A DNA stretch of 64,000 nt, from contig OZ251459.1 in the NCBI GenBank assembly GCA_965242525.1, forward strand, positions 2,144,001 to 2,208,000. Reading direction: 5' to 3'. Origin of the DNA: an uncultured Candidatus Binatia bacterium (GTDB lineage: Bacteria; Desulfobacterota; Binatia; UBA9968; JAJDTQ01). The translations under genes were made by a program, and so were the position numbers. Under the pieces are notes generated by a model. The model made no database searches. It was given only the letters and a program-made list of their open reading frames with translations, and was not told the origin of the DNA. Position 1 is the first letter of the stretch; the number at the start of each line of letters is the position of its first letter. Positions 7,051 through 63,419 of this stretch are shown piece by piece.

Positions 7051-8534
7051 GAAAACCACCCAGCCTGGTGGCAAGACACGAAGCCTATGCCTATCAGCTC
7101 GATGCTTTAAGAGCCGTAAAGGCGCTTCCTTATGCCGCCATATTCCACGAGCAAGGGCTCGGTAAAACAAAGATAGCTATTGACTTGATGTTGCTGTGGC
7201 TATCCAATGACTTAGTGGACACTGTATTTGTGATTACAAAAAAGAGCTTGGTTCAAAATTGGTTTGATGAACTTACCTCTCACTCATACGTAACTCCTCG
7301 AATTCTTTCCGATAACCGTCGCGAGAACAGCCTCGCACTAAACTCACCTGTATTGATCTATATTATGAACTACGAAGCAATCTCGGCAAATCTTCATTTG
7401 ATCGAGGATTTTCTCATTACCTGTAGGGTTGGCGCAATCCTTGACGAAAGTCACAAGATCAAAAACCCGCAAGCAAGGGCATCGATCTGCCTTCACTCTA
7501 TCGCCGACAAATTCTCGCGTAAGGTGATAATGACGGGAACGCCAGTGGCGAACCGTCCTTATGATCTTTGGTCGCAAGTCAAGTTTTTGGACGGAGGACA
7601 GTCTCTCGGGTCTTCTTTTGCTGATTTCAAAGCAACCTTTGATCTTCCCGGTCAGCCAAGTTGCACACAGGAATACAGTGAACGACTATCCAATATCATT
7701 GACAAGATTAGACATTTCTCGGTGCGAGAGACAAAGCGTACCGTAGAATTGAGCCTACCCGACAAGACAATACTAACTCATTTCGTGAACATGGCGCCTC
7801 GCCAAGCGGTAATATATGACTCCTACGTGACCGAAGCGGCCTACGAGATCAACCTTGGGGACGACCTGATTCTGGACAACGCCGAAGACATCCTGAAACG
7901 CCTGTTACGCCTGGTGGAGTGCGCCTCTAATCCTTTCTTGGTTGACAAGAGATACTCTGAGGTGCCAGGGAAGTTCTCCGAACTCTTGAAGCTTCTCCAG
8001 GAAATTGACTTACGAGCACATAAAGTGGTTTTGTGGACAGGGTTTGTTGATAATGTAGAATGGATAACTGCCCAATTGAAGGAGTTTTCGCCCTTGAAGG
8101 TTCATGGTCGTATGTCCATTGAGCAACGGAACCAGTCCATAAGCAGATTCAAAACCCACCAGAAACACCGTGTCTTTGTAGCCACGCCTGGCTCTGCAAA
8201 GGAAGGCTTAACTTTGACAGTAGCCAATCATGCTGTTTTCTACGATCGAAGCTTCAGTCTTGATGATTACCTCCAGGCGCAAGACCGAATTCATAGAATC
8301 TCTCAAACTGAAGACTGCTATGTACACAACTTGATCGCCAAACAAACCGTGGATGAGTGGGTGGATGCTTTGCTAAACGCAAAACATATCGCTGCACAGC
8401 TATCTCAAGGTGATATTTCTCAAGCTGAGTTTGAGTCTTCCTTTACCTTCAATTTAGCCGAAATACTGGCAGACATATTAACTTCCAGGTCGCTCGCTTC
8501 CAGGAGTCAGGAGAACGGAAAATGGCCGAAATAA
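7035..8534 (+). CDS. Compact SNF2/SWI2-family helicase/translocase
   Basis: EQGLGKT, ILDESHKIKN, MTGTP, EGLTLT, QAQDRIHRISQ. Confidence 0.88.
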   Translation: MAFTLRKPPSLVARHEAYAYQLDALRAVKALPYAAIFHEQGLGKTKIAIDLMLLWLSNDLVDTVFVITKKSLVQNWFDELTSHSYVTPRILSDNRRENSLALNSPVLIYIMNYEAISANLHLIEDFLITCRVGAILDESHKIKNPQARASICLHSIADKFSRKVIMTGTPVANRPYDLWSQVKFLDGGQSLGSSFADFKATFDLPGQPSCTQEYSERLSNIIDKIRHFSVRETKRTVELSLPDKTILTHFVNMAPRQAVIYDSYVTEAAYEINLGDDLILDNAEDILKRLLRLVECASNPFLVDKRYSEVPGKFSELLKLLQEIDLRAHKVVLWTGFVDNVEWITAQLKEFSPLKVHGRMSIEQRNQSISRFKTHQKHRVFVATPGSAKEGLTLTVANHAVFYDRSFSLDDYLQAQDRIHRISQTEDCYVHNLIAKQTVDEWVDALLNAKHIAAQLSQGDISQAEFESSFTFNLAEILADILTSRSLASRSQENGKWPK

Positions 8535-19109: not shown

Positions 19110-19303
19110 GGAACCTCTGGACAATCGGTACAGGCGACATGAGCGCGTCCTTCGACTCCGCTTCGCTACGCTCAGGACGAACGGGGATAGCTCCGCTTCG
19201 CTCAGGACGAACAGGGAGAGATCCTCTACGCTCAGGACGAACGGGGATAGGAGTGTCAGGGTGAGGGAATCCATCCTGGATGTCTCGATTCTTCACAGGC
19301 TCC
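19110..19303 (+). mobile_element. MITE family 1, copy A (194 bp, 3 internal units)
   Basis: TIRs GGAACCTCTGGACAATCG / CGATTCTTCACAGGCTCC; flanks CTAA/CTGA; core CCTTCGACTCCGCTTCGCTACGCTCAGGACGAACGG. Confidence 0.8.
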
Positions 19304-31929: not shown

Positions 31930-32086
31930 GGAGCCGGTAACGACCGAGACATCCGGGATGGATCCCCTCCCCCTGGCCTTCCTGTCCCCGTTCGTCCTGA
32001 CACTCCTATTCCCGTTCGTCCTGAGCGTAGCGAAGCGAAGTCGAAGGACGCGCTCATGCCCCCTGTCCCGATTGTCAAGAGGTTTC
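31930..32086 (-). mobile_element. MITE family 1, copy B (reverse orientation)
   Basis: Right end CGATTGTCAAGAGGTTTC; left end degenerate; perfect 4-bp flanking repeat CGAA/CGAA. Confidence 0.78.
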
Positions 32087-32247
32087 CGAAGTCCGCCCGG
32101 AGGTCCGGGCGCGGGGAATCAACTTGATTTCGACGCGGATTTTCTATATCGTGCCGCCATCCGTCAACTTGCCGGGTGGCGCGGGGGCGGGGCGGTTTGC
32201 AAAGACTCCCGTGCATGGTCGGCGCGCGCTGCCAAGGAGGAGTGGAG

Positions 32248-52927: not shown

Positions 52928-52990
52928 GCGCGTCCTTCGACTTCGCTACGCTACGCTCAGGACGAACGGGGCAATCGTTCGGGGTTTCCT
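52928..52990 (+). repeat. MITE family 1 partial copy (core + right TIR)
   Basis: GCGCGTCCTTCGACTTCGCTACGCTACGCTCAGGACGAACGGGG...ATCGTTCGGGGTTTCC. Confidence 0.7.
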
Positions 52991-53011
52991 TCGGCAAGGC
53001 CCGGTCCGCGG

Positions 53012-53919: not shown

Positions 53920-54405
53920 CTATTCCCCGAGCGGGTCGAAGTCCGACCCGTTGAGGGTGAACCGACGCTCCACCGGGGTGGGCTTCAGGATCGTCTGCAT
54001 GACGTAGCACCCGTTCTCGGCGTTGCGGACCACTGCGGCCACCCGCTCCGCGGGCTCGTCGGACTCCAGGTCCAGCCTGGTCTCGAACCCGACCCCCTGG
54101 GCCTCCACGGTCTCCCGCAGCACCGACCCCTGGCTCTTGAAACGCCCGGTCACGTGGACCCGGGCCTTGCCGATCTTCACCTTCATCATTTCCCCGTACC
54201 GGGAAACCTGGGTCAGCAGTCAGAACCCCAGGGAAAGCGCGAAGTACGCCAACGGCGGCGGCGCGCTGTTGTCGCCGCCGGTCCGCTCGGCCTCGTCGCA
54301 CAGGACGGTGAACCCCCGGGCCTCGCCGCTCTTCTTCTGCCGTTCCAGGGCCGCGGCGTCGGCCTCGATCACGATCTCCCGCTTGACGGTCACGTCTTCG
54401 GCCAT
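53920..54405 (-). CDS. OsmC-like protein with in-frame TGA (probable selenocysteine), 161 aa
   Basis: DE..GGDNSAPPP..ALSLGF-TGA(54220-54222)-LLTQVSRYG continuing in frame to AENGCY; hairpin just downstream of the TGA. Confidence 0.78.
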
Positions 54406-54437
54406 ATATCAACCTCCAGGGTTTGGTTTGCGAAACA

Positions 54438-54677
54438 GGAACCTCCGAACGATCGGGACAGGGGGCAAGGCTTCCTTCGACTTCGCCTCGCGTCCTTCGA
54501 CTCCGCTTCGCTACGCTCAGGACGAACGGAGATGGGAGTCCACGCTCAAGGCGAACGGGGATGGGAGCGCAACCCTTCCCAACCGACTCGTGCTGGTCAC
54601 CCATGTTCAAGGCGAACGGGGATGGAGTGTCAGGGCGAGGGAGTCCATCCCGGATGCCTCGATCGTTCAGCGGTTCC
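54438..54677 (+). mobile_element. MITE family 1, copy E (240 bp, expanded and degenerate)
   Basis: TIRs GGAACCTCCGAACGATCG / CGATCGTTCAGCGGTTCC. Confidence 0.78.
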
Positions 54678-54743
54678 AAAGGTAACCCATCAGCCGGAGA
54701 CCGTCAATCGACCCGGCTGCACGAAGCACCGTCAAGCACCGTC

Positions 54744-55244
54744 ATGGCCCGGCGACACGCAGCCCTGATCCCGCTTTCACGCGACCATCACCAGGGGTTG
54801 ACCCTGGCCTTGCGCTGCCGCAAGCACGCCCTCGGGCAGCTCAACCCCGGCGACGCCGCATCCCTGGAGGCATGCGCCGCGGAAGCCTCCCGTTTCTTCG
54901 GCGAGAGCCTGACGCCCCACTTCGAGGCCGAAGAGAAGGTCCTGTTCCCGCTGATGGCGGAATACCGGGAGAGCCGGGAGCTCGTGGCCGAGCTCCGGGG
55001 CGAGCACCGGGAGTTCCACCGTCTGCTGGCGCGGGCCGGGGATCCCCGCGGGCTGCGGAAGTTCCTGTTCGACTTCGGCGACCTGCTGGAGCGGCACATA
55101 CGGAGCGAAGAGCGCGGCCTCTTCCCCGCCTTCGAGAGGCTCGTGCCGCAGGAGGAAGCCGACCGGGCCGGCCGGGAGTTGCGGCAAACCCTGGAAGGGA
55201 GCCGTGGGGCGTCCCGAGACCCCGAACTGCCGGAGTCGTCATGA
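54744..55244 (+). CDS. Hemerythrin/HHE cation-binding domain protein
   Basis: LSRDHH, HFEAEEKVLFP, EH, HIRSEERGLFP. Confidence 0.85.
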   Translation: MARRHAALIPLSRDHHQGLTLALRCRKHALGQLNPGDAASLEACAAEASRFFGESLTPHFEAEEKVLFPLMAEYRESRELVAELRGEHREFHRLLARAGDPRGLRKFLFDFGDLLERHIRSEERGLFPAFERLVPQEEADRAGRELRQTLEGSRGASRDPELPESS

Positions 55245-55263
55245 CGAAACCCCGAACGGCCCT

Positions 55264-55307
55264 CCCCGTTCGTCCTGAGCGCAGCCGAAGCCGAGTCGAA
55301 GGACGCG
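55264..55307 (-). repeat. Stand-alone core unit of MITE family 1
   Basis: CCCCGTTCGTCCTGAGCGCAGCCGAAGCCGAGTCGAAGGACGCG. Confidence 0.7.
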
Positions 55308-55317
55308 TAGCGTAGTA

Positions 55318-55416
55318 TCCTGTAACAGTGTCCAAGTCACTGGCATGGAGTATCTTGTCATGCACGGAAAACATGTCTTGCGCCGCATCCCCGCTGACAG
55401 AGCGAATGTTACAGGG
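55318..55416. repeat. 99-bp repeat family 2, copy 1
   Basis: Terminal IR CCTGTAACA...TGTTACAGG; colinear with 55570-55668. Confidence 0.75.
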
Positions 55417-55418
55417 TA

Positions 55419-55559
55419 GAAACCTCTGAACAATCGGGACAGAGAGCATGGGCGCGTCCTTCGACTTCGCTTCGCTACGCTCAGGACGAACGGGAATAGG
55501 GGCGTCAGGGTGAGGGAATCGGGAATCCATCCTGGATGTCTCGATTGTTCAGAGGTTTC
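55419..55559 (+). mobile_element. MITE family 1, copy G (141 bp)
   Basis: Perfect 18-bp TIR GAAACCTCTGAACAATCG/CGATTGTTCAGAGGTTTC; perfect TSD GGTA. Confidence 0.85.
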
Positions 55560-55569
55560 GGTAGTAGTT

Positions 55570-55668
55570 CCCTGTAACAGCGACCGAGTCACTGGCGTGG
55601 AACATTCCATCATGCACCGCGAACATGGCTCGCGCTGTATCCCTGATGATAGAGTAACTGTTACAGGG
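55570..55668. repeat. 99-bp repeat family 2, copy 2
   Basis: Terminal IR CCCTGTAACAG...CTGTTACAGGG. Confidence 0.75.
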
Positions 55669-55677
55669 TAGTAGTTT

Positions 55678-55720
55678 CCCGTTCGTCCTGAGCGAAGCGA
55701 AGCGAAGTCGAAGGACGCGC
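55678..55720 (-). repeat. Stand-alone core unit of MITE family 1
   Basis: CCCGTTCGTCCTGAGCGAAGCGAAGCGAAGTCGAAGGACGCGC. Confidence 0.7.
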
Positions 55721-55756
55721 TTTCCCAAGGGAGAGCCGGCATTGAACGGACGTTCC

Positions 55757-55966
55757 ATGAACACCAAGACCGCGATCCTGTCCATCGACGGCCTGACCCC
55801 CGACACCGCAGCCGAGCTGTCGAAGACGCTCCGGGATGTCACGGGCGTCACCGAAGTCGATTTCTCGCTGGAACGAAAGGTAGTCGTGGTGGAGTTCGAC
55901 CCGGAGGCCGCAAGCGTGGACGGGCTCACGCGCGTGGTCCTGTCCAACGGCTACAAGGTCCTCTGA
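55757..55966 (+). CDS. HMA-fold (CopZ-like) protein lacking CxxC
   Basis: LSIDGLTPDTA..GVTEVDFSLE..VEFDP..GYKV. Confidence 0.7.
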   Translation: MNTKTAILSIDGLTPDTAAELSKTLRDVTGVTEVDFSLERKVVVVEFDPEAASVDGLTRVVLSNGYKVL

Positions 55967-56029
55967 CCCGCGGGGGTGAAACTCCCGTCCACGAGATGCG
56001 GACGGGGCCTTCGCCGTCTCGTTGGCCGG

Positions 56030-57628
56030 CTACTTGGTCACGTTGCGGTAATAGACCTGGTCGAAGTTCGAGCCGGCCACGAACCCCCGGACGTTGCGGC
56101 GGCGCGCGAACTGCTCGCTCTGCTGGAACATGACCACGTAGGGTCCCTCGGTCTGGAGACGCTCCTGTAGTTGCAGGTAGAGCTGCCTGCGCTTGGCCGG
56201 ATCCATCTCGTCGCGGGCCTGCACCACCATGGCGTTCAGGTCGTCCTGCGCCCATGCGTTGCGCCATGCGAGCACGCCGGTGAGCCCGGCCTCGGGGCGG
56301 TTGTCCGGGTTGTGCGCGAAGGAGTCCGCGTTGGAGTGCGGGTCCACGTAGTCCGGCGACCAGTGGGCCAGGATCAACTCGTGCTTGCGCCCCCGGTACC
56401 TGGGCCACAGGACCTTGCCTTCCCGGGCCACGACCCGGGCCTTGACGCCGACCCGCGCGAGGGTCGCCTGGACCGACCGCGCGATCAGTGGGAACGGCGG
56501 CGTGGTGAGGGTATCGATGCGCACTTCGAACCCGTCGCCGTGGCCTGCCTCGGCCAGCAGCGACTTGGCTTTCTCCACGTCGAGCCGGTACGGCGTCCCG
56601 GTATAGGCCGCCCACAGCCCCCTGGGCCAGAACGCCTGGTGCACCATGAACTGGCCCGCCAGGAAGGACTCCGCCATGCCCCGGTAGTCCACCGCGTGCC
56701 GCAGGGCCTGCACCACCTTGGCCTTGCCGAGGATCGGGTGCGATGCGTTGGCCGCCATATAGACCACCGTGCCGGTGGGAGAGCCGTCGATGGCCACGTC
56801 CGGGCGGCCCTCCACGGCCTTGATCTGGTCGGAGGTGAGGTTGCGCGCCAAGTCGATGTCGCCCTGCTCCAGCATCCGCCTCTGGGCGGAGGACTCGGGC
56901 ACGTGGCGCAGGACCACGCGCCGGGTCCCCGGAGGTCCCCGGCGGTAGTCGGGGTTGGCTTCGAGCGCCACCGACTCGTTGGCGGTCCAGCTATCGAGCC
57001 GGAACGGACCGGAGCCCGCGCTGTGGGACTTCAGCCACTCGTGGCCCAGGTCCCCGTCCTTCTCGTGGGCGAGCGCGAGTCGTTTGTCCACCACCGAGCC
57101 GACGCCGGCCGAGAGCACGTTCAACACGAGACCCGGGGAGAAGTCCTCCACGATGGTGACGCGCACGCGGCGTTGGTCCACCACCTGGACCAGGTCCTCT
57201 ACGTTGTCCGCGTTCCAGCCCAACTGGGTGAGGATGAAGGCCGGGGTCTTGTCGAGTTTCACCACCCGCTCCAGGGAGAACTCCACGTCCTCGGGACGCA
57301 CCGGGTTGCCGGAGTGGAACCTGAGACCCTGCCGGATCCGGAAGGTGACGGTCTTGCCGTCGGCGCTCACCGTGTGGCTCTCGGCGACGCCGCCCACGAG
57401 CCTGTCCGGGGCCTCGGGCTCGAACGTCATGATGCGGTCGTAGATGTTGGCCAGGAGCTCGCCGGCGGTGAACTCGAAGGCTTCGGCCGGGTCCAGGGTA
57501 ACCATGTCGGCCATGTCCTTGGCCATGACCAGGGTGTCCCCGGGGGTCACGGCCCGGACCGACGCCGCGGCAAGGATCAACGCCAACGCACACGACAGGA
57601 CGCCTGACAGGCGGAGATAAAGACACAT
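56030..57628 (-). CDS. ABC transporter substrate-binding protein (family 5, DppA-like)
   Basis: Signal peptide, TLDPAEAFE, FHSGNPV, GSGPF. Confidence 0.9.
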   Translation of the reverse strand: MCLYLRLSGVLSCALALILAAASVRAVTPGDTLVMAKDMADMVTLDPAEAFEFTAGELLANIYDRIMTFEPEAPDRLVGGVAESHTVSADGKTVTFRIRQGLRFHSGNPVRPEDVEFSLERVVKLDKTPAFILTQLGWNADNVEDLVQVVDQRRVRVTIVEDFSPGLVLNVLSAGVGSVVDKRLALAHEKDGDLGHEWLKSHSAGSGPFRLDSWTANESVALEANPDYRRGPPGTRRVVLRHVPESSAQRRMLEQGDIDLARNLTSDQIKAVEGRPDVAIDGSPTGTVVYMAANASHPILGKAKVVQALRHAVDYRGMAESFLAGQFMVHQAFWPRGLWAAYTGTPYRLDVEKAKSLLAEAGHGDGFEVRIDTLTTPPFPLIARSVQATLARVGVKARVVAREGKVLWPRYRGRKHELILAHWSPDYVDPHSNADSFAHNPDNRPEAGLTGVLAWRNAWAQDDLNAMVVQARDEMDPAKRRQLYLQLQERLQTEGPYVVMFQQSEQFARRRNVRGFVAGSNFDQVYYRNVTK

Positions 57629-57735
57629 GGGAAAGCCTCCTGGTATCACAGCGGTCAGCGGGGCCGCGCAGCCGGCGTTCTCATCCCTGCCATACGTGCG
57701 AGGCGAACACAATCTGGCGTCGCTCCGACACAACG

Positions 57736-57903
57736 CTATTTCCTGACGAAACCGACGTAAACGTAGAGCGCAACCAGAACGCCTGAGACCACCAGGCGGA
57801 TATTGCCGTAGAAGGGATCGACCCGGAGTCCCAGGAACATAGCCCCGGAAACGACGAGATAGAGAACCGCCAGGGCGACGACGTGAACCAGGATCTTCAA
57901 CAT
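57736..57903 (-). CDS. Small two-TM membrane protein (55 aa)
   Basis: Two hydrophobic helices separated by DPFYG. Confidence 0.5.
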   Translation of the reverse strand: MLKILVHVVALAVLYLVVSGAMFLGLRVDPFYGNIRLVVSGVLVALYVYVGFVRK

Positions 57904-57914
57904 GCCTAGGTCAC

Positions 57915-58100
57915 GGGATGGGAGTGCGATGATCGTCTCGTGCGCCGGAAGCGGAATGGCGCGCAACTCGGTGACGCATACTTGGGCGTTGCCGTTGACG
58001 GGTGGAAGCAAGTGTCGAGAAGGTGGCCGTTGTAGAGCGCCATCAAGCTCCATGCCTTCTCTTCTGAGAATGCGCCGCCGGACCGATGGACGTAGTTCAA
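57915..58100 (-). pseudogene. Frameshifted C-terminal remnant of a BsuBI/PstI-like (Eco57I-type) DNA methyltransferase
   Basis: LNYVHRSGGAFSEEKAWSLMALYNGHLLDTCF, then a frame change to VNGNAQVCVTELRAIPLP; resembles the NHLN..NS..D.YFR..NG.TQV.AT.LR tail of this family as I recall it. Confidence 0.55.
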
Positions 58101-58485
58101 AGGGTGCGGGCGGGGGGGACTCGACCCCCCCTGTGGCCTACTTGGCCCAGTGTTCGACAGTGAGTGGCTTCGTACTGCATGCGCATGTCCGCTCCCCTCC
58201 TGGAGGACCCGCTAAGCCACGAGCTCGCACACGCCATCAAGCCTGAGTTTGATTCGCATTTCTACCTCCTTCTCTGATATGAACTCAATGCCCACAGGGG
58301 ACACGAGACCCAAGAAGGATCGAACATGCGCGACAGCCTTGAAGCCACACACAAAGTCACCCACCATATTAGCCAAGCTCTGAAACTGAGGACAGGGTAG
58401 CAAATATCCCGTACGATTTCAATATGTAGAATTGTCCAATGATCCATCTACCTTCGATCTTTGCCACGGGACCGGTTCCCCTTGC

Positions 58486-61400
58486 CTACCGCGGCGCCGC
58501 CAGTAGCATGGCGTCCAGCAGGCGCTTCTCTTCGCTGACCGAAGGGTACAGAGCGGACAGGGCGTTGGCAAGACGCAGGAAGTCGGGGCCGCGCTCGTGT
58601 TCCGCCTTCAGCAGGTTGCGCAGGGCTTGGCTGCGGCCCGATGCCTGCAAGAGCATGGCCGCGTGCACCCGGTCCAGCGTGGTGGCGTCCGGGGCCTGCA
58701 TCTCCGCGTCGTCCGCGATGAGGACCTTCCCCCCGCGGCTTCGGGCGCGCTTCTTCCGGGGGGCAGCCTCCATTTCGGGGAAAAGCACCTGCTGGACGGT
58801 GACCCGCGGGTCGCGTTCCAACCATTCCGCGGCCGTGTCCGCGCCGTCTTCGCCGAAAAGCTGCTTCCCTCGCTCCGTGGCGTTTATCAGCCGCACCACG
58901 CCCTTGTCCGTCTCGATGATCCGTCCCTCCCATTTGGACAGTTCGATGCCCAAGGGCTGGGCCAAGCGGCGCGCCACGTCGAAGACGAGGCTGTAGCCCC
59001 CGGGCTTGTCGCGGGGCGCGTCGTCCGCCTCGTCGTGGTCCTCGTCCTCCGCAACCTCGCCGCTGTCTTCGGAGGCGTCGTCGGCTCCGGTGCTTTGCAG
59101 GGTCCAGAGGAACAGGGCAGTCAGGCGGGTGTCCTCTTCCAGCACCCCGGCCATGCCGTTGCGCGCCTTCGCCTCCGCAGCCCCGAGGACGTTTTCGAGG
59201 GCGGTGCGCCCGACCACTTCCCACACCCGTTCCAGGTACTCCGGCAGGCCCACCTCACGCCCCTCCGCGGTCTCCACCTGCCGGTAGCGGCTGTATATCT
59301 CCAAGGCCGGGCCGATGCAGGCGAAGACCAGGTCCGCGCCCCGGACCCCTTCGCCTTGCAGCCGTTCCATCCATTCGCCCACGCGGATGGGCAGTTCGCG
59401 CAGCACGTCCGCCCAATCGCCCACCGGCGCGTCGTCGAGGCGGGGCCGGCAGACTAGGTGAACGCTGGTGGCCAGGGACGCGGTATCACGCGCATTGAGA
59501 CGAGAACCCATCTCCGTTGCCACCGGCCAAGAGCCGGTGATGGTCCAGCCGCCGCTGATCATCCCGGACAGCAGCGCTTCCCAGCCCTCGGTGGTCTTGT
59601 GGGCGAAGACGACCGATCCGACACCGTCCTGGCGCAGGATGCGCCGCCCTTCGGCAAAAGCCCGAACCATTCCCGATTCGTAGGTCCTTGCCGTCTTGGT
59701 CGAACTGCTGAGCCGATGCGGTCGGTCAACGACGATTTCTTCTTCTTTCGGGGTCAGGTCGTGCGAGCCGGTGAGGTTGCAAAGAGCCATCATTTGTTCT
59801 GGCAAGGCGCGCTTGAGCCAGACCAGGAAGAAATCGGACAAGTGTGCATAGGGAACGGCGTCGTAGTAGGGCGGGTCGGTGAACCAGACACTGGCGGCGG
59901 CGTCGGGCAAAGGATAAGCCTTGGCGTCTGCGGGTTGCACTTGGCCAAGGTTGGATTCGGGCCATGAGTCAATAACATTGGCAATCCAGTCCAGCGCCCC
60001 GGCATAACCGCCAGTGGATTCCGAAAAGGGGTTGCTCTCGCTGTAGTCCCAGACCATGGGGAGAGCCTGTCGAGAATAGACGCCCTCATGCTTCTCGCCT
60101 GATGTATGCCATCGGCATAGCGAGCATCCTGCATTGGCGGTTCGTGTCAACGCCAGCGCCAGAGGTTGTTTCGCCATGTCGTCGATCGTTGGGAACCTCT
60201 GAACGATCGGGACAGGGGGCGTGAGCGCGTCCTTCGACTTCGCTTCGCTACGCTCAGGACGAACGGAGGTCTCCACTTCGCTACGCTCAAGATGAACGGG
60301 CGTCTCTGCTTCGCTACGCTCAAGACGAACGGGGATGGGATGGTCAGGGTGAGGGAGTCCATCCCGGATGTCTCGATTGTTCGGGAGTTTCGTTGATGAT
60401 TTCGTCAATTCCACCAGCGCCGCCTTCTGCCGCGCGGTGAATAGATCGCCCCATGTCGTCATTCCGTAGATTGGTACGCTGATGCGTCGAATCTCGTTCA
60501 GCGAAATCGGCTCGTCCGGCGCCGGACAAGGCCCCTGCCTCCCGCCCCGTTCCCATTCATCGAGAATCCCCGCCAGCCGCGCCTGCGCCTTGTGCACCGC
60601 CGCGTAATCGGCGTCCGTGGGTAGCCGATAGCGCCGGCCAGGCTCATCTTCCTTCAGCGTCACCACCGCGGTCATGCGCGCACCGCCCACGCGCTTCCCT
60701 TTGCCATCGAAGATCACGTCCGCACCGCCGCGCTGCTCGGCAAGTTGCGCCCGCACCCGCTCCGGCGGTAACACAACGCGGCAACACGGGCAGGTCGCCT
60801 TTGCCCGCGTCACCGTGCCCGCACGCACGTCCTTGTCGGTCTTCGGCTCGAAAATCTCCAACTCGACACGCGGCGGCTCCTTGGCCGGCTGCACGACCTT
60901 ATGGAACCTCTGAACAATCGGGACAGGAGGCATGAGCGCGTCCTTCGACTCCGCTTCGCTACGCTCAGGATGAACGGAGGTCTCCGCTTCGCTACGCTCA
61001 GGACGAACGGGGATAGGCGTGTCAGCGTGAGGGAATCCATCCTGGATCTCTCGATCGTTCAGATGTTTCTTGTAGCGGAGCGCCTGACGGCCTCGGACCT
61101 TGATTCGTTTGCCGCCCTCCCTCTTGAAGACCGCCTTCTTCGCAAGCCACAACGACCGTAGCAACGGAATCTCTGCCCCGCAGTTTGGAGCTTCGCACCG
61201 CACCGTGCGCGCCCACAAGTAGGCGATGGGCGTGCTCCCGTCCGGGTCCGCAGGGTAGAGGTCGGCCAGTTCCCGTTCCGCGGCCTGCCTGACCTCGCTG
61301 CCGACCTTGCGCAACTCATCGGCCAGCCCCGAACCGTGGCGCGGGATGTCTTCCAGCATCACCTTGAGGATCAGGCAGGCCACCGGGTTCAGGTCGCTGG

Positions 61401-61884
61401 CGAACGCCTCGCAGCCCAACCGCAATGCTTCCAACGGAATCGAGCCGCCGCCCGCGAACGGGTCCACCACCAGGGGCGGCTCCACGCCGTGGGCCGCCCT
61501 CACCAGCGCCCGGGCCGTTTCGAGCCGGACGCCGTTTGCGGCAAGGCTCCAGTTGGCGAAGTCGGCGATGAACTTGAGCAAGACCCGCCGCAAGCCCTCG
61601 TCCGGCTCGATGGCCTCGCTCCACCCTTCCGGCCGCCCGTGCATCTTGAGGAGGATCCGCCGCGCCTCCTTCTTGAACGCTTCCGGGCAATGCGGGTCGC
61701 ACGGGTCCGGCAGCAGCAGCGCCATCAGCATGGCCCGGGAGGAGGCCAGCGGCCGCCGCGCCCACCACAGGTGCAGCGTGGAAGGGTGCCCGTGCCGGAT
61801 GGACTTCTCCCGCGCCGCGTGCCGCGATACCTCGGCAATGGGGAAGTCCACCTCCGCCAGCCGCCTGCACTCCCTGGGGATCAT
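58486..61884 (-). CDS. DUF1156 adenine-specific DNA methyltransferase carrying two in-frame MITE insertions
   Basis: LHLWWARRPL, DPFAGGGSIPLE, Zn knuckles CEAPNC/CPCC, FTDPPYYD. Confidence 0.9.
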   Translation of the reverse strand: MIPRECRRLAEVDFPIAEVSRHAAREKSIRHGHPSTLHLWWARRPLASSRAMLMALLLPDPCDPHCPEAFKKEARRILLKMHGRPEGWSEAIEPDEGLRRVLLKFIADFANWSLAANGVRLETARALVRAAHGVEPPLVVDPFAGGGSIPLEALRLGCEAFASDLNPVACLILKVMLEDIPRHGSGLADELRKVGSEVRQAAERELADLYPADPDGSTPIAYLWARTVRCEAPNCGAEIPLLRSLWLAKKAVFKREGGKRIKVRGRQALRYKKHLNDREIQDGFPHADTPIPVRPERSEAETSVHPERSEAESKDALMPPVPIVQRFHKVVQPAKEPPRVELEIFEPKTDKDVRAGTVTRAKATCPCCRVVLPPERVRAQLAEQRGGADVIFDGKGKRVGGARMTAVVTLKEDEPGRRYRLPTDADYAAVHKAQARLAGILDEWERGGRQGPCPAPDEPISLNEIRRISVPIYGMTTWGDLFTARQKAALVELTKSSTKLPNNRDIRDGLPHPDHPIPVRLERSEAETPVHLERSEVETSVRPERSEAKSKDALTPPVPIVQRFPTIDDMAKQPLALALTRTANAGCSLCRWHTSGEKHEGVYSRQALPMVWDYSESNPFSESTGGYAGALDWIANVIDSWPESNLGQVQPADAKAYPLPDAAASVWFTDPPYYDAVPYAHLSDFFLVWLKRALPEQMMALCNLTGSHDLTPKEEEIVVDRPHRLSSSTKTARTYESGMVRAFAEGRRILRQDGVGSVVFAHKTTEGWEALLSGMISGGWTITGSWPVATEMGSRLNARDTASLATSVHLVCRPRLDDAPVGDWADVLRELPIRVGEWMERLQGEGVRGADLVFACIGPALEIYSRYRQVETAEGREVGLPEYLERVWEVVGRTALENVLGAAEAKARNGMAGVLEEDTRLTALFLWTLQSTGADDASEDSGEVAEDEDHDEADDAPRDKPGGYSLVFDVARRLAQPLGIELSKWEGRIIETDKGVVRLINATERGKQLFGEDGADTAAEWLERDPRVTVQQVLFPEMEAAPRKKRARSRGGKVLIADDAEMQAPDATTLDRVHAAMLLQASGRSQALRNLLKAEHERGPDFLRLANALSALYPSVSEEKRLLDAMLLAAPR
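60192..60391 (+). mobile_element. MITE family 1, copy I (200 bp, 3 units), in frame within the DUF1156 gene
   Basis: TIRs GGAACCTCTGAACGATCG/CGATTGTTCGGGAGTTTC; perfect TSD GTTG; 200+4=204 bp. Confidence 0.88.
60903..61069 (+). mobile_element. MITE family 1, copy J (167 bp, 2 units), in frame within the DUF1156 gene
   Basis: TIRs GGAACCTCTGAACAATCG/CGATCGTTCAGATGTTTC; flanks TTAT/TTGT; 167+4=171 bp. Confidence 0.88.
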
Positions 61885-61886
61885 GA

Positions 61887-62019
61887 GGAACCTCTGGACA
61901 ATCGGGTCAGGGGACATGAGCGCGTCCTTCGACTCCGCTTCGCTACGCTCAGGACGAACGGGAATAGGGGATCAGGGTGAGGGAGTCCATTCCGGATGTC
62001 TCGATTGTCCAGAGGTTCC
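61887..62019 (+). mobile_element. MITE family 1, copy K (133 bp), immediately upstream of the DUF1156 start
   Basis: Perfect TIR GGAACCTCTGGACAATCG/CGATTGTCCAGAGGTTCC. Confidence 0.85.
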
Positions 62020-62029
62020 AGAAATCTCC

Positions 62030-62077
62030 GGATTCCCGCCCCCGCTTCCGCGAGGACATGCTTTCGCGGGAATGACG
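62030..62077 (-). repeat. CGTC-type REP-like palindrome with internal insert
   Basis: Minus strand CGTCATTCCCGCGAAAGC-atgtcctcgcggaagcggggg-CGGGAATCC. Confidence 0.6.
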
Positions 62078-62132
62078 AGGGGTGGGGAGGGAGTGTCATA
62101 ACCCATACAAAAGCCGGAAGACCCGTTCCTCC

Positions 62133-63281
62133 TCACTCATTGCTCAATAGCTCACCAAGATCCGTCAATGCGCGCTCCATCGGCAGGGCGACAATATCAT
62201 CCATGTAAAGAGGCGTGGACCCGCCGAAGAACAGGTAGCACTTGGCTGGGGGATAGTCTTTCTTGAACTCCCGGAGCGCTCTCGCATCCCTGGGTTGGAT
62301 CCGGGTGGAGCGCTTGATTTCGATGGCCAGCAGGCCGCGCGGCCCGTACAGGACGAAATCGACCTCCAGGTTGTTTCGGGTGCGCCAGAAGAATATCCGG
62401 TAGCCGTATTCATGGTAGTCGTTGACCGCCCTCAGTTCCTGGAGCACCAGTGTTTCCAGCGCGGGACCGTCCATCTCGGCTTCGGAATCCAGAGGCCCCA
62501 CCGGTCGGATCGCCCGGAACACGCCCGTGTCGAAGAAATAGAATTTCTCGTGCGAGACGAGCTTGCGCTTGGCCCTGCGGGAGAACACCGGCAGGCGCAC
62601 GGCGATCAGCAGGTCTTCCAGGATGGAGAAATAGTTCTCCGCCGCCGAGCGTTCGATGTGCGCCTCGCGCGCGACGGAGCTGATGTTGAGGGTCGCTCCC
62701 TGGGAGAAACTCGCCACTTCCAGGAAACGGGAGAAATGGCCGATGTTGCGCGTCAGGCCCTCCTGCATGACCTCTTCCCGCAGGTATGTCTGCACATAGT
62801 CCTTGAGGTATCTTCCGGGATCGCTTTCACTGAACCGAGCAGGCAAATGGCCGAACTGCAAGGAATCGCGCAGGCGGAAGGCGTCCTGCTGCTCCGTCAC
62901 CGTCAGGGGATGCATGCGGTAGGTCAAGGCCCGCCCGGCCAGCAGGTTGACCCCTCTTCGCCTCAACGTCCTGGCGCTGGACCCTGTCAGGACGAAGTTC
63001 AGCCGGCGGGCTTCGATCAGGTCATGGACCTCGTTCAGCAACGCAGGGATACGTTGCACCTCGTCTATGATGACCCGGTCGGTATGATCCGGAGGAATGA
63101 GATCCCTGAGTTGTCCGGGGTTCGCGGACAGGCGGTTGTAGAACTCTGATTGCAGCAGGTTGACGAAGAGGGCCCGGGGGAGATGGCGCTTCAACCAAGT
63201 GGTCTTTCCCGTCCCCCTCGGCCCGAACAGGAAGAAACTCTTGCGTGATTCCAGGGGTTTCTCGATCAGCCGCTCGAACAT
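62133..63281 (-). CDS. AAA_14 ATPase with DUF4143 C-terminus (COG1373-like)
   Basis: GPRGTGKT, IIDEVQ, LTGSS, KFYFFDTGV, EVDFV..IEIK. Confidence 0.88.
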   Translation of the reverse strand: MFERLIEKPLESRKSFFLFGPRGTGKTTWLKRHLPRALFVNLLQSEFYNRLSANPGQLRDLIPPDHTDRVIIDEVQRIPALLNEVHDLIEARRLNFVLTGSSARTLRRRGVNLLAGRALTYRMHPLTVTEQQDAFRLRDSLQFGHLPARFSESDPGRYLKDYVQTYLREEVMQEGLTRNIGHFSRFLEVASFSQGATLNISSVAREAHIERSAAENYFSILEDLLIAVRLPVFSRRAKRKLVSHEKFYFFDTGVFRAIRPVGPLDSEAEMDGPALETLVLQELRAVNDYHEYGYRIFFWRTRNNLEVDFVLYGPRGLLAIEIKRSTRIQPRDARALREFKKDYPPAKCYLFFGGSTPLYMDDIVALPMERALTDLGELLSNE

Positions 63282-63419
63282 CAGCAACCCACTCCTGGCG
63301 AATTTGCGCACTATAGACCAATTCAGGGGCAAAATGCAGTCGGAAAGTGAAAAAAGGCCGGATTTTTTCGGGCCGGAAAGCCCGGCGGATTGGCAAAGGG
63401 AACGACGGAGGACGGCGCG

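Follow-up and report, generated by a model that had tools for sequence, protein, structure and literature searches.

How does a gene for a DNA-modifying enzyme come to hold two copies of a transposon without a break in its reading frame, and does such a gene still give rise to a working protein? This question is raised by a locus in a 64,000-nucleotide stretch of DNA from an uncultured Candidatus Binatia bacterium (contig OZ251459.1, positions 2,144,001 to 2,208,000; hereafter 'the window', whose own numbering we use below). On the minus strand of this window, a gene encoding a DUF1156/HmaB-type N6-adenine DNA methyltransferase carries two copies, called I and J, of a MITE (miniature inverted-repeat transposable element) within its open reading frame (ORF), and a third copy, K, lies directly before its start codon. 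The explanation that we consider probable is that the MITE inserted three times at this one HmaB gene, that the two in-frame copies were tolerated, and that the enzyme is under selection. In this scenario, the element would have inserted twice inside the coding sequence and once directly before the start codon; of the two coding insertions, I would have come first and J later, and both would have kept the frame and been free of stop codons. The core of the protein would then have been conserved while the inserted sequences changed at about three times its rate, with gains or losses of entire 11-residue units. Finally, with the loss of its helicase and ATPase partners, the enzyme would act as a solitary methylase.

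The ORF itself runs uninterrupted from 58486 to 61917, and gives a protein of 1143 amino acids (aa) if read from an ATG inside copy K, or of 1132 aa if read from the ATG at 61884. The latter position is shared by 14 of 17 homologues in an 18-sequence alignment, which preceded our main alignment of the window protein and 75 homologues (76 sequences), and this ATG is likely the start codon. In the search table, the homologues are 61-94% identical to the window protein. (Homologous proteins are designated below by P numbers, and related loci by L numbers.) Pfam recognizes DUF1156 at the N-terminus of the protein (4.9e-22), and PADLOC reports a match to HmaB (6.5e-110), which in the Hma system is the DNA-adenine methylase. 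The window protein thus shows the features by which an HmaB enzyme is recognized: the DUF1156 domain, the match to the HmaB profile, and a motif I and a DPPY motif that are set apart by a target-recognition domain (TRD) insert. Within motif I, D141, F143 and G145-G147 are invariant among the 76 sequences, and V139, V140, P142 and A144 are at least 90% conserved. When the family profile was compared with PDB chains (E up to 0.01), no solved relative was found. Judged from its sequence, the window enzyme would have retained N6-adenine methylase activity.

The repeat family is a MITE-type non-autonomous DNA transposon, because its members have terminal inverted repeats and 4-bp target duplications, are small and present in multiple copies, and differ in presence or absence among relatives. 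A 17-nt core pattern matches the window 13 times, where 0.08 matches are expected, and a 19-nt terminal-repeat pattern matches 11 times, where 0.02 are expected. The element is 133-240 bp long and consists of the terminal inverted repeats, of roughly 20-30 nt, one to three 33-bp internal units and a variable middle, flanked by the target duplication. In J, K and the copy that begins at 55419, the arms of the terminal repeats are 19-33 nt long and 84-91% complementary. Both element ends could be located by script in six copies (I, J, K and those beginning at 19110, 54438 and 55419). The flanking 4-mers of these copies are identical in two cases (I and 55419), agree at three of four positions in two others (J and 19110), and at two of four in the remaining two. 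When occupied sites are compared with empty ones, the extra sequence has the size of the element plus 4 bp, namely 204 bp relative to P0008 (at the protein level) and 171 bp relative to the DNA of L004. Signs of mobility are that J is missing from P0002 and L004, and that I is missing from P0008 even though this protein has the same cassette allele as the window protein.

In all, the window contains seven full and two partial copies, and, as had been stated in the original prediction from the bare sequence, three of the seven full copies (I, J and K) cluster at the methyltransferase gene. The other four lie outside, and upstream of, the Pfam-supported parts of neighbouring ORFs, and are probably intergenic. 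Among 79 related loci we found no MITE copy with both ends; the exact patterns gave no match, and a laxer blastn search gave only one 49-bp core fragment. This fragment is in L004 (9811-9859), approximately 140 bp upstream of the methyltransferase start codon. The surroundings of the 55419 copy contain two further repeats: 45 nt of the MITE core in inverted orientation (55676-55720), 98% complementary to 55452-55496, and a different repeat of 108 nt that flanks the copy on both sides (55312-55419 and 55564-55671, 77% alike).

Together with its target duplication, copy I adds 204 bp or 68 codons to the gene, and copy J with its 4 bp adds 171 bp or 57 codons. Both are read in one common frame of the element, in sense orientation and without a stop. 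The encoded segments, of 68 and 57 residues, are rich in Pro, Glu, Arg and Ser and make up 125 extra residues in total. Copy I is flanked by a perfect duplication, GTTG/GTTG on the plus strand (60188-60191 and 60392-60395), and its middle has a 33-bp period of 2.8 copies (60241-60333), while copy J is flanked by TTAT and TTGT (60899-60902 and 61070-61073), which are identical at three of four positions. The original prediction had described two MITE copies in frame inside the DUF1156 ORF, with I given as 200 bp plus GTTG (68 codons) and J as 167+4 bp (57 codons). The uninterrupted ORF, in which the quoted peptides occur in the same element frame, and the exact ends and perfect flanking duplication of copy I bear this description out. 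For copy J, the codon count also stands, but the 4-bp duplication is imperfect. When J is excised, the gene reads RQALRYKVVQPAKEPP, as in the homologues, so that the claim that its removal restores the uninterrupted sequence agrees with the alignment. Excision of I gives ELTKSSTIDDMAKQP (TKSSTIDD), which matches KLTKLSTIDDAEKQP (TKLSTIDD) in P0008.

How easily could such insertions have kept the frame by chance? The frame used by I and J is free of stops in five of the six full copies whose ends were located, and one antisense frame is also open in five of the six. The remaining element frames have stops in most copies, and the length of the element preserves the reading frame in just three of the six. 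A random insertion would leave the ORF intact perhaps about one time in five, and two ORF-keeping events in one gene suggest a filter rather than luck. Judging from the kept ORF and the selection signal described below, I and J would be translated. A special coding adaptation of the element is unneeded to explain its open frames, since base composition already predicts two open frames in six. We also considered whether a low G+C content of the gene had targeted the element to it. However, the gene without its MITEs has 66.6% G+C, compared with 64.8% for the window, and local A+T-richness occurs at site I only.

The original prediction had anticipated clean gaps of 68 and 57 aa in homologues, and these were found in the 76-sequence alignment. 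Copy I is present only in the window protein, P0001 and P0002, with a clean gap in the 73 other sequences, and copy J only in the window protein and P0001, with a clean gap in the other 74. At the closest genomic locus that we found, L004, from a metagenome-assembled genome (MAG) of Candidatus Binatia, the alignment with the DNA of the window begins at the start codon and continues until 46 bp beyond the stop, with an additional 171 bp on the window side at J. The inserts also vary among the proteins that carry them. J has two internal units in the window but one in P0001, which is thus one 11-residue unit shorter there, and I has three in the window and in P0001 but two in P0002. Indels within the inserts comprise whole 11-residue units throughout.

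These comparisons bear on the possibility that repeat copies were simply misplaced into the gene during assembly, to which the original prediction had itself pointed. In favour of such an artefact are the repetitive nature of the element and the origin of the relatives from assembled metagenomes. However, independent assemblies also carry the inserts: P0001, on a 4.15-Mb contig, has both of them, with substitutions of its own and a unit difference, and P0002, on a 294-kb contig, has I. Moreover, the junctions show target duplication, and removal of the inserts restores the sequence of homologues. Because they recur in P0001 and P0002 with such individual differences, the inserts are not assembly artefacts, and we attach practically no weight to this explanation.

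The same distribution dates the insertions relative to each other. Since I is common to the window, P0001 and P0002, and J to the window and P0001 only, insertion I appears to be the older of the two and J the younger. The divergence of the insert sequences fits this order, in that the window and P0001 differ at 10 of 68 residues in I and at 2 of 46 in J, in addition to the one 11-residue unit.

The window protein and P0001, which share both inserts, differ at 44 of 991 core columns of the alignment. Defining conserved columns as those at least 90% identical among the other 74 sequences, we found differences at 7 of 522 conserved columns, compared with 37 of 469 others (Fisher p = 5e-7). Because the differences avoid highly conserved columns, the insert-bearing protein appears to have been kept under purifying selection ever since the two insertions took place. 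The window protein deviates from the family 7 times at 519 conserved columns, which equals the family median, and P0001 deviates 10 times. On the other hand, columns that are mostly gapped differ at approximately three times the core rate (17 of 130 vs 44 of 991, p = 3e-4). Over 3.4 kb, neither a frameshift nor a stop is present in the window, P0001 or P0002.

Several observations nevertheless weigh against the explanation that we prefer. The selection test adds up the changes of both lineages, and its result would be compatible with a function lost very recently on the window branch. In the window, no autonomous partner with the same ends was found, all 11 terminal-repeat matches lying at short copies. 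The placement of the inserts in surface loops of the protein is a prediction from gap patterns, with the variable length of the positions and their hot-spot character as indirect evidence. By a base-composition estimate, about two open element frames in six is the chance level at 65% G+C, and at this G+C content long open frames arise easily. The remaining points concern the genomic context of the gene. In L004, L005 and L010, PADLOC identifies an operon of HmaA (an SNF2 helicase with NOV_C), HmaB, HEC-01A-type ATPases and HmaC (DUF499), and within the flanks of the 79 related loci an HmaA-like gene occurs in 57, an HmaC-like gene in 67 and both in 53. The 64-kb window contains no match to HmaC and no homologue of HmaA, for which the sole match, at 7956-8363, is to a helicase domain with 30% identity. 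The DNA homology between the window and L004 ends downstream at 58440 and upstream at the start codon, the site of copy K. As the end of K is 2 nt from the start codon, the sequence immediately upstream is the element, which has replaced the native upstream sequence. A scan of 58300-62300 revealed no sigma-70-like promoter. Finally, the gene in L004 is split by an IS3-type insertion sequence (L004:11353-12809), so such loci do decay.

Because HmaA and HmaC are absent from the window and only a stub of an ATPase gene is found downstream, the methyltransferase gene appears to be the solitary remnant of an Hma operon, which the original prediction had not noted. The ATPase stub, which directly follows the methyltransferase stop codon, marks the cut-off point of the ancestral operon. 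The contrast between this stub and the 53 of 79 related loci with both partners, the broken copy in L004, the position of copy K with no promoter-like site found, and also the many long spurious ORFs in the window could all be taken to mean that the gene is a decaying relic, that is, a non-functional leftover of the broken operon whose frame is still open owing to the short time elapsed and the high G+C content, and in which the in-frame state of the inserts is luck. This does not agree well with the avoidance of conserved columns by the window-P0001 differences, with the long stretch free of frameshifts and stops in three sequences, with insert indels that are all of whole 11-residue units, or with a deviation at conserved columns that is merely the family median. 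In addition, the six copies, by their lengths and frames, gave an estimate that two independent insertions that preserve the frame and bring no stop would be obtained by luck in about 3-6% of cases. Because of the selection signal in particular, we rate a relic as unlikely, and prefer a selected enzyme with tolerated inserts.

A further possibility is that the inserts are removed before the mature protein is made, as introns or inteins or by programmed bypass. The terminal repeats of each insert can pair in the mRNA, with minimum free energies of -57 and -65 kcal/mol. When compared with shuffled sequences, however, these folds have weak z-scores of -1.7 and -1.8, and with Rfam we found no family in 54000-62300 at E up to 1, except for a chance match to a CRISPR repeat. 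Because the inserts have no Rfam match and their folds are only slightly better than those of shuffles, removal at the RNA level is unlikely. Typical self-splicing introns are also much longer than 167-200 nt. As for inteins, Pfam finds DUF1156 only and no intein/Hint domain, and the same element is common outside genes. We therefore regard removal of the inserts, by whatever route, as very improbable. Inteins and homing-endonuclease genes do resemble the MITE inserts in being selfish DNA that resides in frame in a gene that the cell may be unable to do without. Unlike inteins, however, the MITE inserts have no splicing domain or motif that Pfam could find, and would persist in the mature protein.

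As outlined in parts of a 2026 study of BREX-related systems (PMC12839542), these methyltransferases have a helical DUF1156 domain at the N-terminus, a methyltransferase core in which strand 2 is followed by a TRD insert, and helix-turn-helix-like domains at the C-terminus. Both I and J fall in the TRD insert. They had been placed between motif I and DPPY, and J between the two Cys knuckles, and this placement is correct, with motif I at residue 139, DPPY at residue 670, and the knuckle cysteines at 230/235 and 365/367/368. J directly follows a nearly invariant ALR motif, and the adjoining stretch is 12 residues shorter in many family members. I is situated in a variable linker of 5-20 residues behind a conserved ARQKxALVEL segment. 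Directly after I, the alignment shows a cassette with discrete allele classes that are freely recombined. Over residues of about 455-740 (roughly 59660-60520), mosaic allele classes recombine independently across phyla. The mosaic region around and after I probably represents the target-recognition cassette. The left junction of I is the same in P0002 as in the window protein, but is followed by a different cassette allele, that of P0003 and P0004. The view of the inserts as tolerated loops, which had been put forward for them, fits the purifying selection since insertion, the faster change within the inserts, and their location at the same positions as insertion hot spots of the family.

The original prediction had also allowed that the inserts modulate specificity. 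An adaptive role, which would be compatible with our preferred explanation, could take the form of a linker whose length alters specificity, or of MITEs that flank the variable cassette and offer a movable stretch of homology, by which alleles or paralogues could exchange their cassettes. Consistent with this idea, the unit number of I and J varies among orthologues, P0002 joins the left junction of I to the cassette allele of P0003/P0004, the variable cassette of P0128 is bracketed by MITE copies, and, among long proteins, the MITE peptide was found in HmaB enzymes only. However, the cassette mosaic is also found in many phyla without the MITE, so the element is not needed for the shuffling, and insert residues drift faster than the core, contrary to what a sequence-specific function would lead one to expect. 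We consider an adaptive role doubtful. A comparable case is the HsdS subunit of Type I systems (EcoR124I/II), in which a short linker repeat lies in frame between recognition modules, varies in copy number, and controls specificity through its length. The repeat in the window protein differs from that of HsdS in that it is 11 residues long, has a transposon origin and is without a known change of target sequence.

We searched for the peptide of copy I in 5.8 billion protein clusters at 90% identity, considering proteins of 120-2000 residues, and ran a second search with the antisense open frame. The first search gave seven matches, namely P0001, P0002, P0128, P0131, P0129, P0130 and one 208-aa ORF of no family, and the second gave a single match, a 209-aa ORF of no family. 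P0128 and P0131 match HmaB with values of ~1e-112 but share no more than 33-40% identity with the window protein, and P0129 and P0130 read as C-terminal pieces of P0131-like enzymes. In this second HmaB subfamily, the MITE family occurs in frame at the equivalent linker and a few residues before DPPY, and one of the copies at the equivalent linker is reversed and read in another frame. P0128 has MITE copies on either side of its variable cassette, and P0006 has a related insert before DPPY. One 4.15-Mb contig carries P0131, P0001 and the insert-free paralogue P0010. Coding MITE copies in HmaB come from at least six separate insertions. By these word-based searches, which are weak for negatives, coding copies in long proteins seem confined to HmaB enzymes, of two divergent subfamilies. 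We also searched 1.84 billion representatives at 50% identity with the same peptide and again obtained seven matches, of which six are 65-208-aa ORFs of MITE sequence and one is an unrelated repeat protein of 425 aa; clustering at 50% hides insert-bearing members, and coding insertions are not countable from this search.

The HmaB family also accommodates selfish DNA of other kinds, a finding that, like the second subfamily, goes beyond the original prediction. A profile alignment comprised 182 full-length members of the family, all distinct (the window protein, 120 proteins and 61 locus ORFs), of which 17 have in-frame inserts of at least 25 aa, and these inserts are found at only five positions. 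Some of them encode transposase or nuclease domains, several at the same loop as J (Table). The host ORF is intact in P0051, L052, L019 and L031, is frame-shifted in L046, and stops soon after the insert in L037. The insert-bearing genes of L019, L016, L065 and L008 are located between HmaA and HmaC genes. In homologues from other phyla, several of the selfish domains are flanked by short peptide repeats. In L031 (35-1756), from a Nitrospira MAG, a recurring AE(A/T)QRTQ motif additionally marks several short inserts that lie in frame and are probably another small repeat family.

We tentatively put forward a broader possibility, which we consider unlikely. It holds that the HmaB recognition region could be a preferred in-frame home for selfish DNA, where MITEs (in the two HmaB subfamilies), IS200-like/RAYT transposases, and DUF559 and GIY-YIG nuclease domains occupy the same three or four loops and leave the enzyme unbroken. 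In the lineage of the window, the MITE copies on either side of the variable cassette, with their varying number of 11-residue units, would function as handles for cassette exchange and as length-adjustable linkers that alter specificity. A possible reason is that the cell could not give up a self-protecting methylase as long as its restriction partners remained active. In the literature searched, to which the supplement of PMC12839542 did not belong, we found no description of selfish DNA in frame in the HmaB recognition region, and a literature search on MITEs in Binatia found nothing.

Table. Locations of the features discussed; positions are those of the window unless a protein or locus is named.
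Feature	Position	Strand	Basis or remark
Coding sequence of 1132-aa DUF1156/HmaB-type N6-adenine DNA methyltransferase	58486..61884	-	ORF, Pfam, PADLOC, homologues
DUF1156 N-terminal helical domain, residues 14-69	61678..61845	-	Pfam (residues 25-80 in the 1143-aa reading)
Motif I, VVDPFAGGG, residues 139-147	61444..61470	-	Motif position and conservation in 76 sequences
First Cys knuckle, CEAPNC, residues 230-235	61180..61197	-	C230 and C235 invariant (76 sequences)
Second Cys knuckle, CPCC, residues 365-368	60781..60792	-	C365, C367 and C368 invariant (76 sequences)
Catalytic motif IV, DPPY, residues 670-673	59866..59877	-	Invariant (76 sequences)
MITE copy I, 200 bp, three 33-bp units, residues 498-565	60192..60391	-	Both ends located; absent from 73/76 aligned proteins
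MITE copy J, 167 bp, two 33-bp units, residues 272-328	60903..61069	-	Both ends located; absent from 74/76 aligned proteins
MITE copy K, 133 bp, one unit, in-frame ATG at 61917	61887..62019	-	23-nt terminal repeats, 91% complementary
MITE copy, 194 bp, between CBS-domain ORF and radical-SAM/HemN-like ORF	19110..19303	-	Same MITE family
MITE copy with degenerate left end, just past start (31923) of cytidylyltransferase ORF	about 31930..32087	+	Same MITE family
MITE copy, 240 bp, upstream of Pfam-supported parts of divergent thioredoxin and hemerythrin ORFs	54438..54677	-	
MITE copy, 141 bp, perfect 4-bp duplication TACC	55419..55559	-	
Partial MITE copies	52929-52991; 55676-55721		
Stub of HEC-01A-type ATPase gene (5' end), directly after methyltransferase stop	58387..58538	-	tblastn
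IS200-like Y1 transposase domain in J loop of homologues	P0051; L037 (10706-11458); L046 (6612-7346)		Pfam
DUF559 nuclease domain in J loop of a homologue	L052 (1060-1686)		Pfam
GIY-YIG domain near residue 215 of homologues	L019 (10001-11698); L031 (35-1756)		Pfam

Since in-frame insertion of MITEs is known from other bacteria, we asked in which respects the present locus differs from known cases. Passages of a 2024 review (PMC10969869) call the in-frame fusion of intragenic MITEs with host ORFs 'not unusual', present the Rickettsia palindromic elements (RPEs) as an extreme case, and give 44 RPE insertions in R. conorii. RPEs were, by a review's account, judged compatible with the fold of the host protein (PMC10969869, PMC3184786). 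Further in-frame cases are listed in a portion of the second of these papers, a review from 2011, and parts of PMC5896051 describe copies of the Coxiella element QMITE2 in frame mid-way in hypothetical ORFs. As these accounts portray them, RPEs resemble the MITE of the window in being short palindromic mobile repeats that lie in frame in coding genes, add a conserved peptide and leave the host ORF intact. They are, however, spread over many unrelated genes, whereas coding copies of the MITE were found only in HmaB, by searches weak for negatives. The MITE also differs from RPEs in its clear terminal inverted repeats, its 4-bp duplication and its variable array of 33-bp units. Its host, unlike those of RPEs, belongs to a free-living high-G+C lineage, the closest locus being from a Binatia MAG. 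ERIC, BOX, Correia, QMITE1/2 and the Anabaena MITEs, as far as the cited passages characterize them, are likewise non-autonomous, bear terminal repeats, lie mostly between genes and are occasionally fused in frame. In contrast to other bacterial MITE fusions, which are mostly 3' extensions or affect hypothetical genes, the present case involves two internal copies in a defined enzyme, conserved between genomes and apparently under purifying selection.

The enzyme can likewise be compared with its own family. In the portions of PMC8565338 and PMC12839542 that deal with HmaB of the DUF499-centred, BREX-related Hma systems, the protein has DUF1156, motif I, a long TRD insert and DPPY, as does the window protein. 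Unlike the HmaB genes of those systems, the window gene is without the HmaA helicase and the HmaC/DUF499 ATPase, and its product has 125 additional transposon-derived residues.

The bare event is thus a further example of known in-frame MITE insertion and not a new principle. What is distinctive is that one enzyme family serves as host, that the inserts lie in its recognition region, that there is a signature of selection in at least two genomes, and that the loops are shared with other selfish elements. The locus offers a clean and datable case, with two insertions of differing age in one well-understood enzyme that have been kept in at least two genomes, and allows a direct test of how a DNA methyltransferase tolerates a transposon-derived peptide. 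If the concentration in one defence methylase family is true in whole genomes, it would point either to a scaffold of unusual permissiveness or to a strategy in which mobile DNA finds a safe haven in self-protection genes. The concentration of inserts in the recognition region, if true, suggests a possible route to new specificities.

Lastly, some features of the surroundings of the gene and of its relatives are worth recording. The neighbours of the methyltransferase gene in the window encode an AAA ATPase with DUF4143 and an ABC-type solute-binding protein. The former, on the upstream side (62133-63332, minus strand), matches the PADLOC candidate defence family PDC-S01 (3.5e-58), and a terminator-like hairpin after its stop codon (62132-62116) was the only feature that the promoter scan revealed. 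In each of the loci L054 and L032, the methyltransferase gene is present twice within about 10 kb, and in P0107 the C-terminal part of an NADAR domain is fused ahead of DUF1156.

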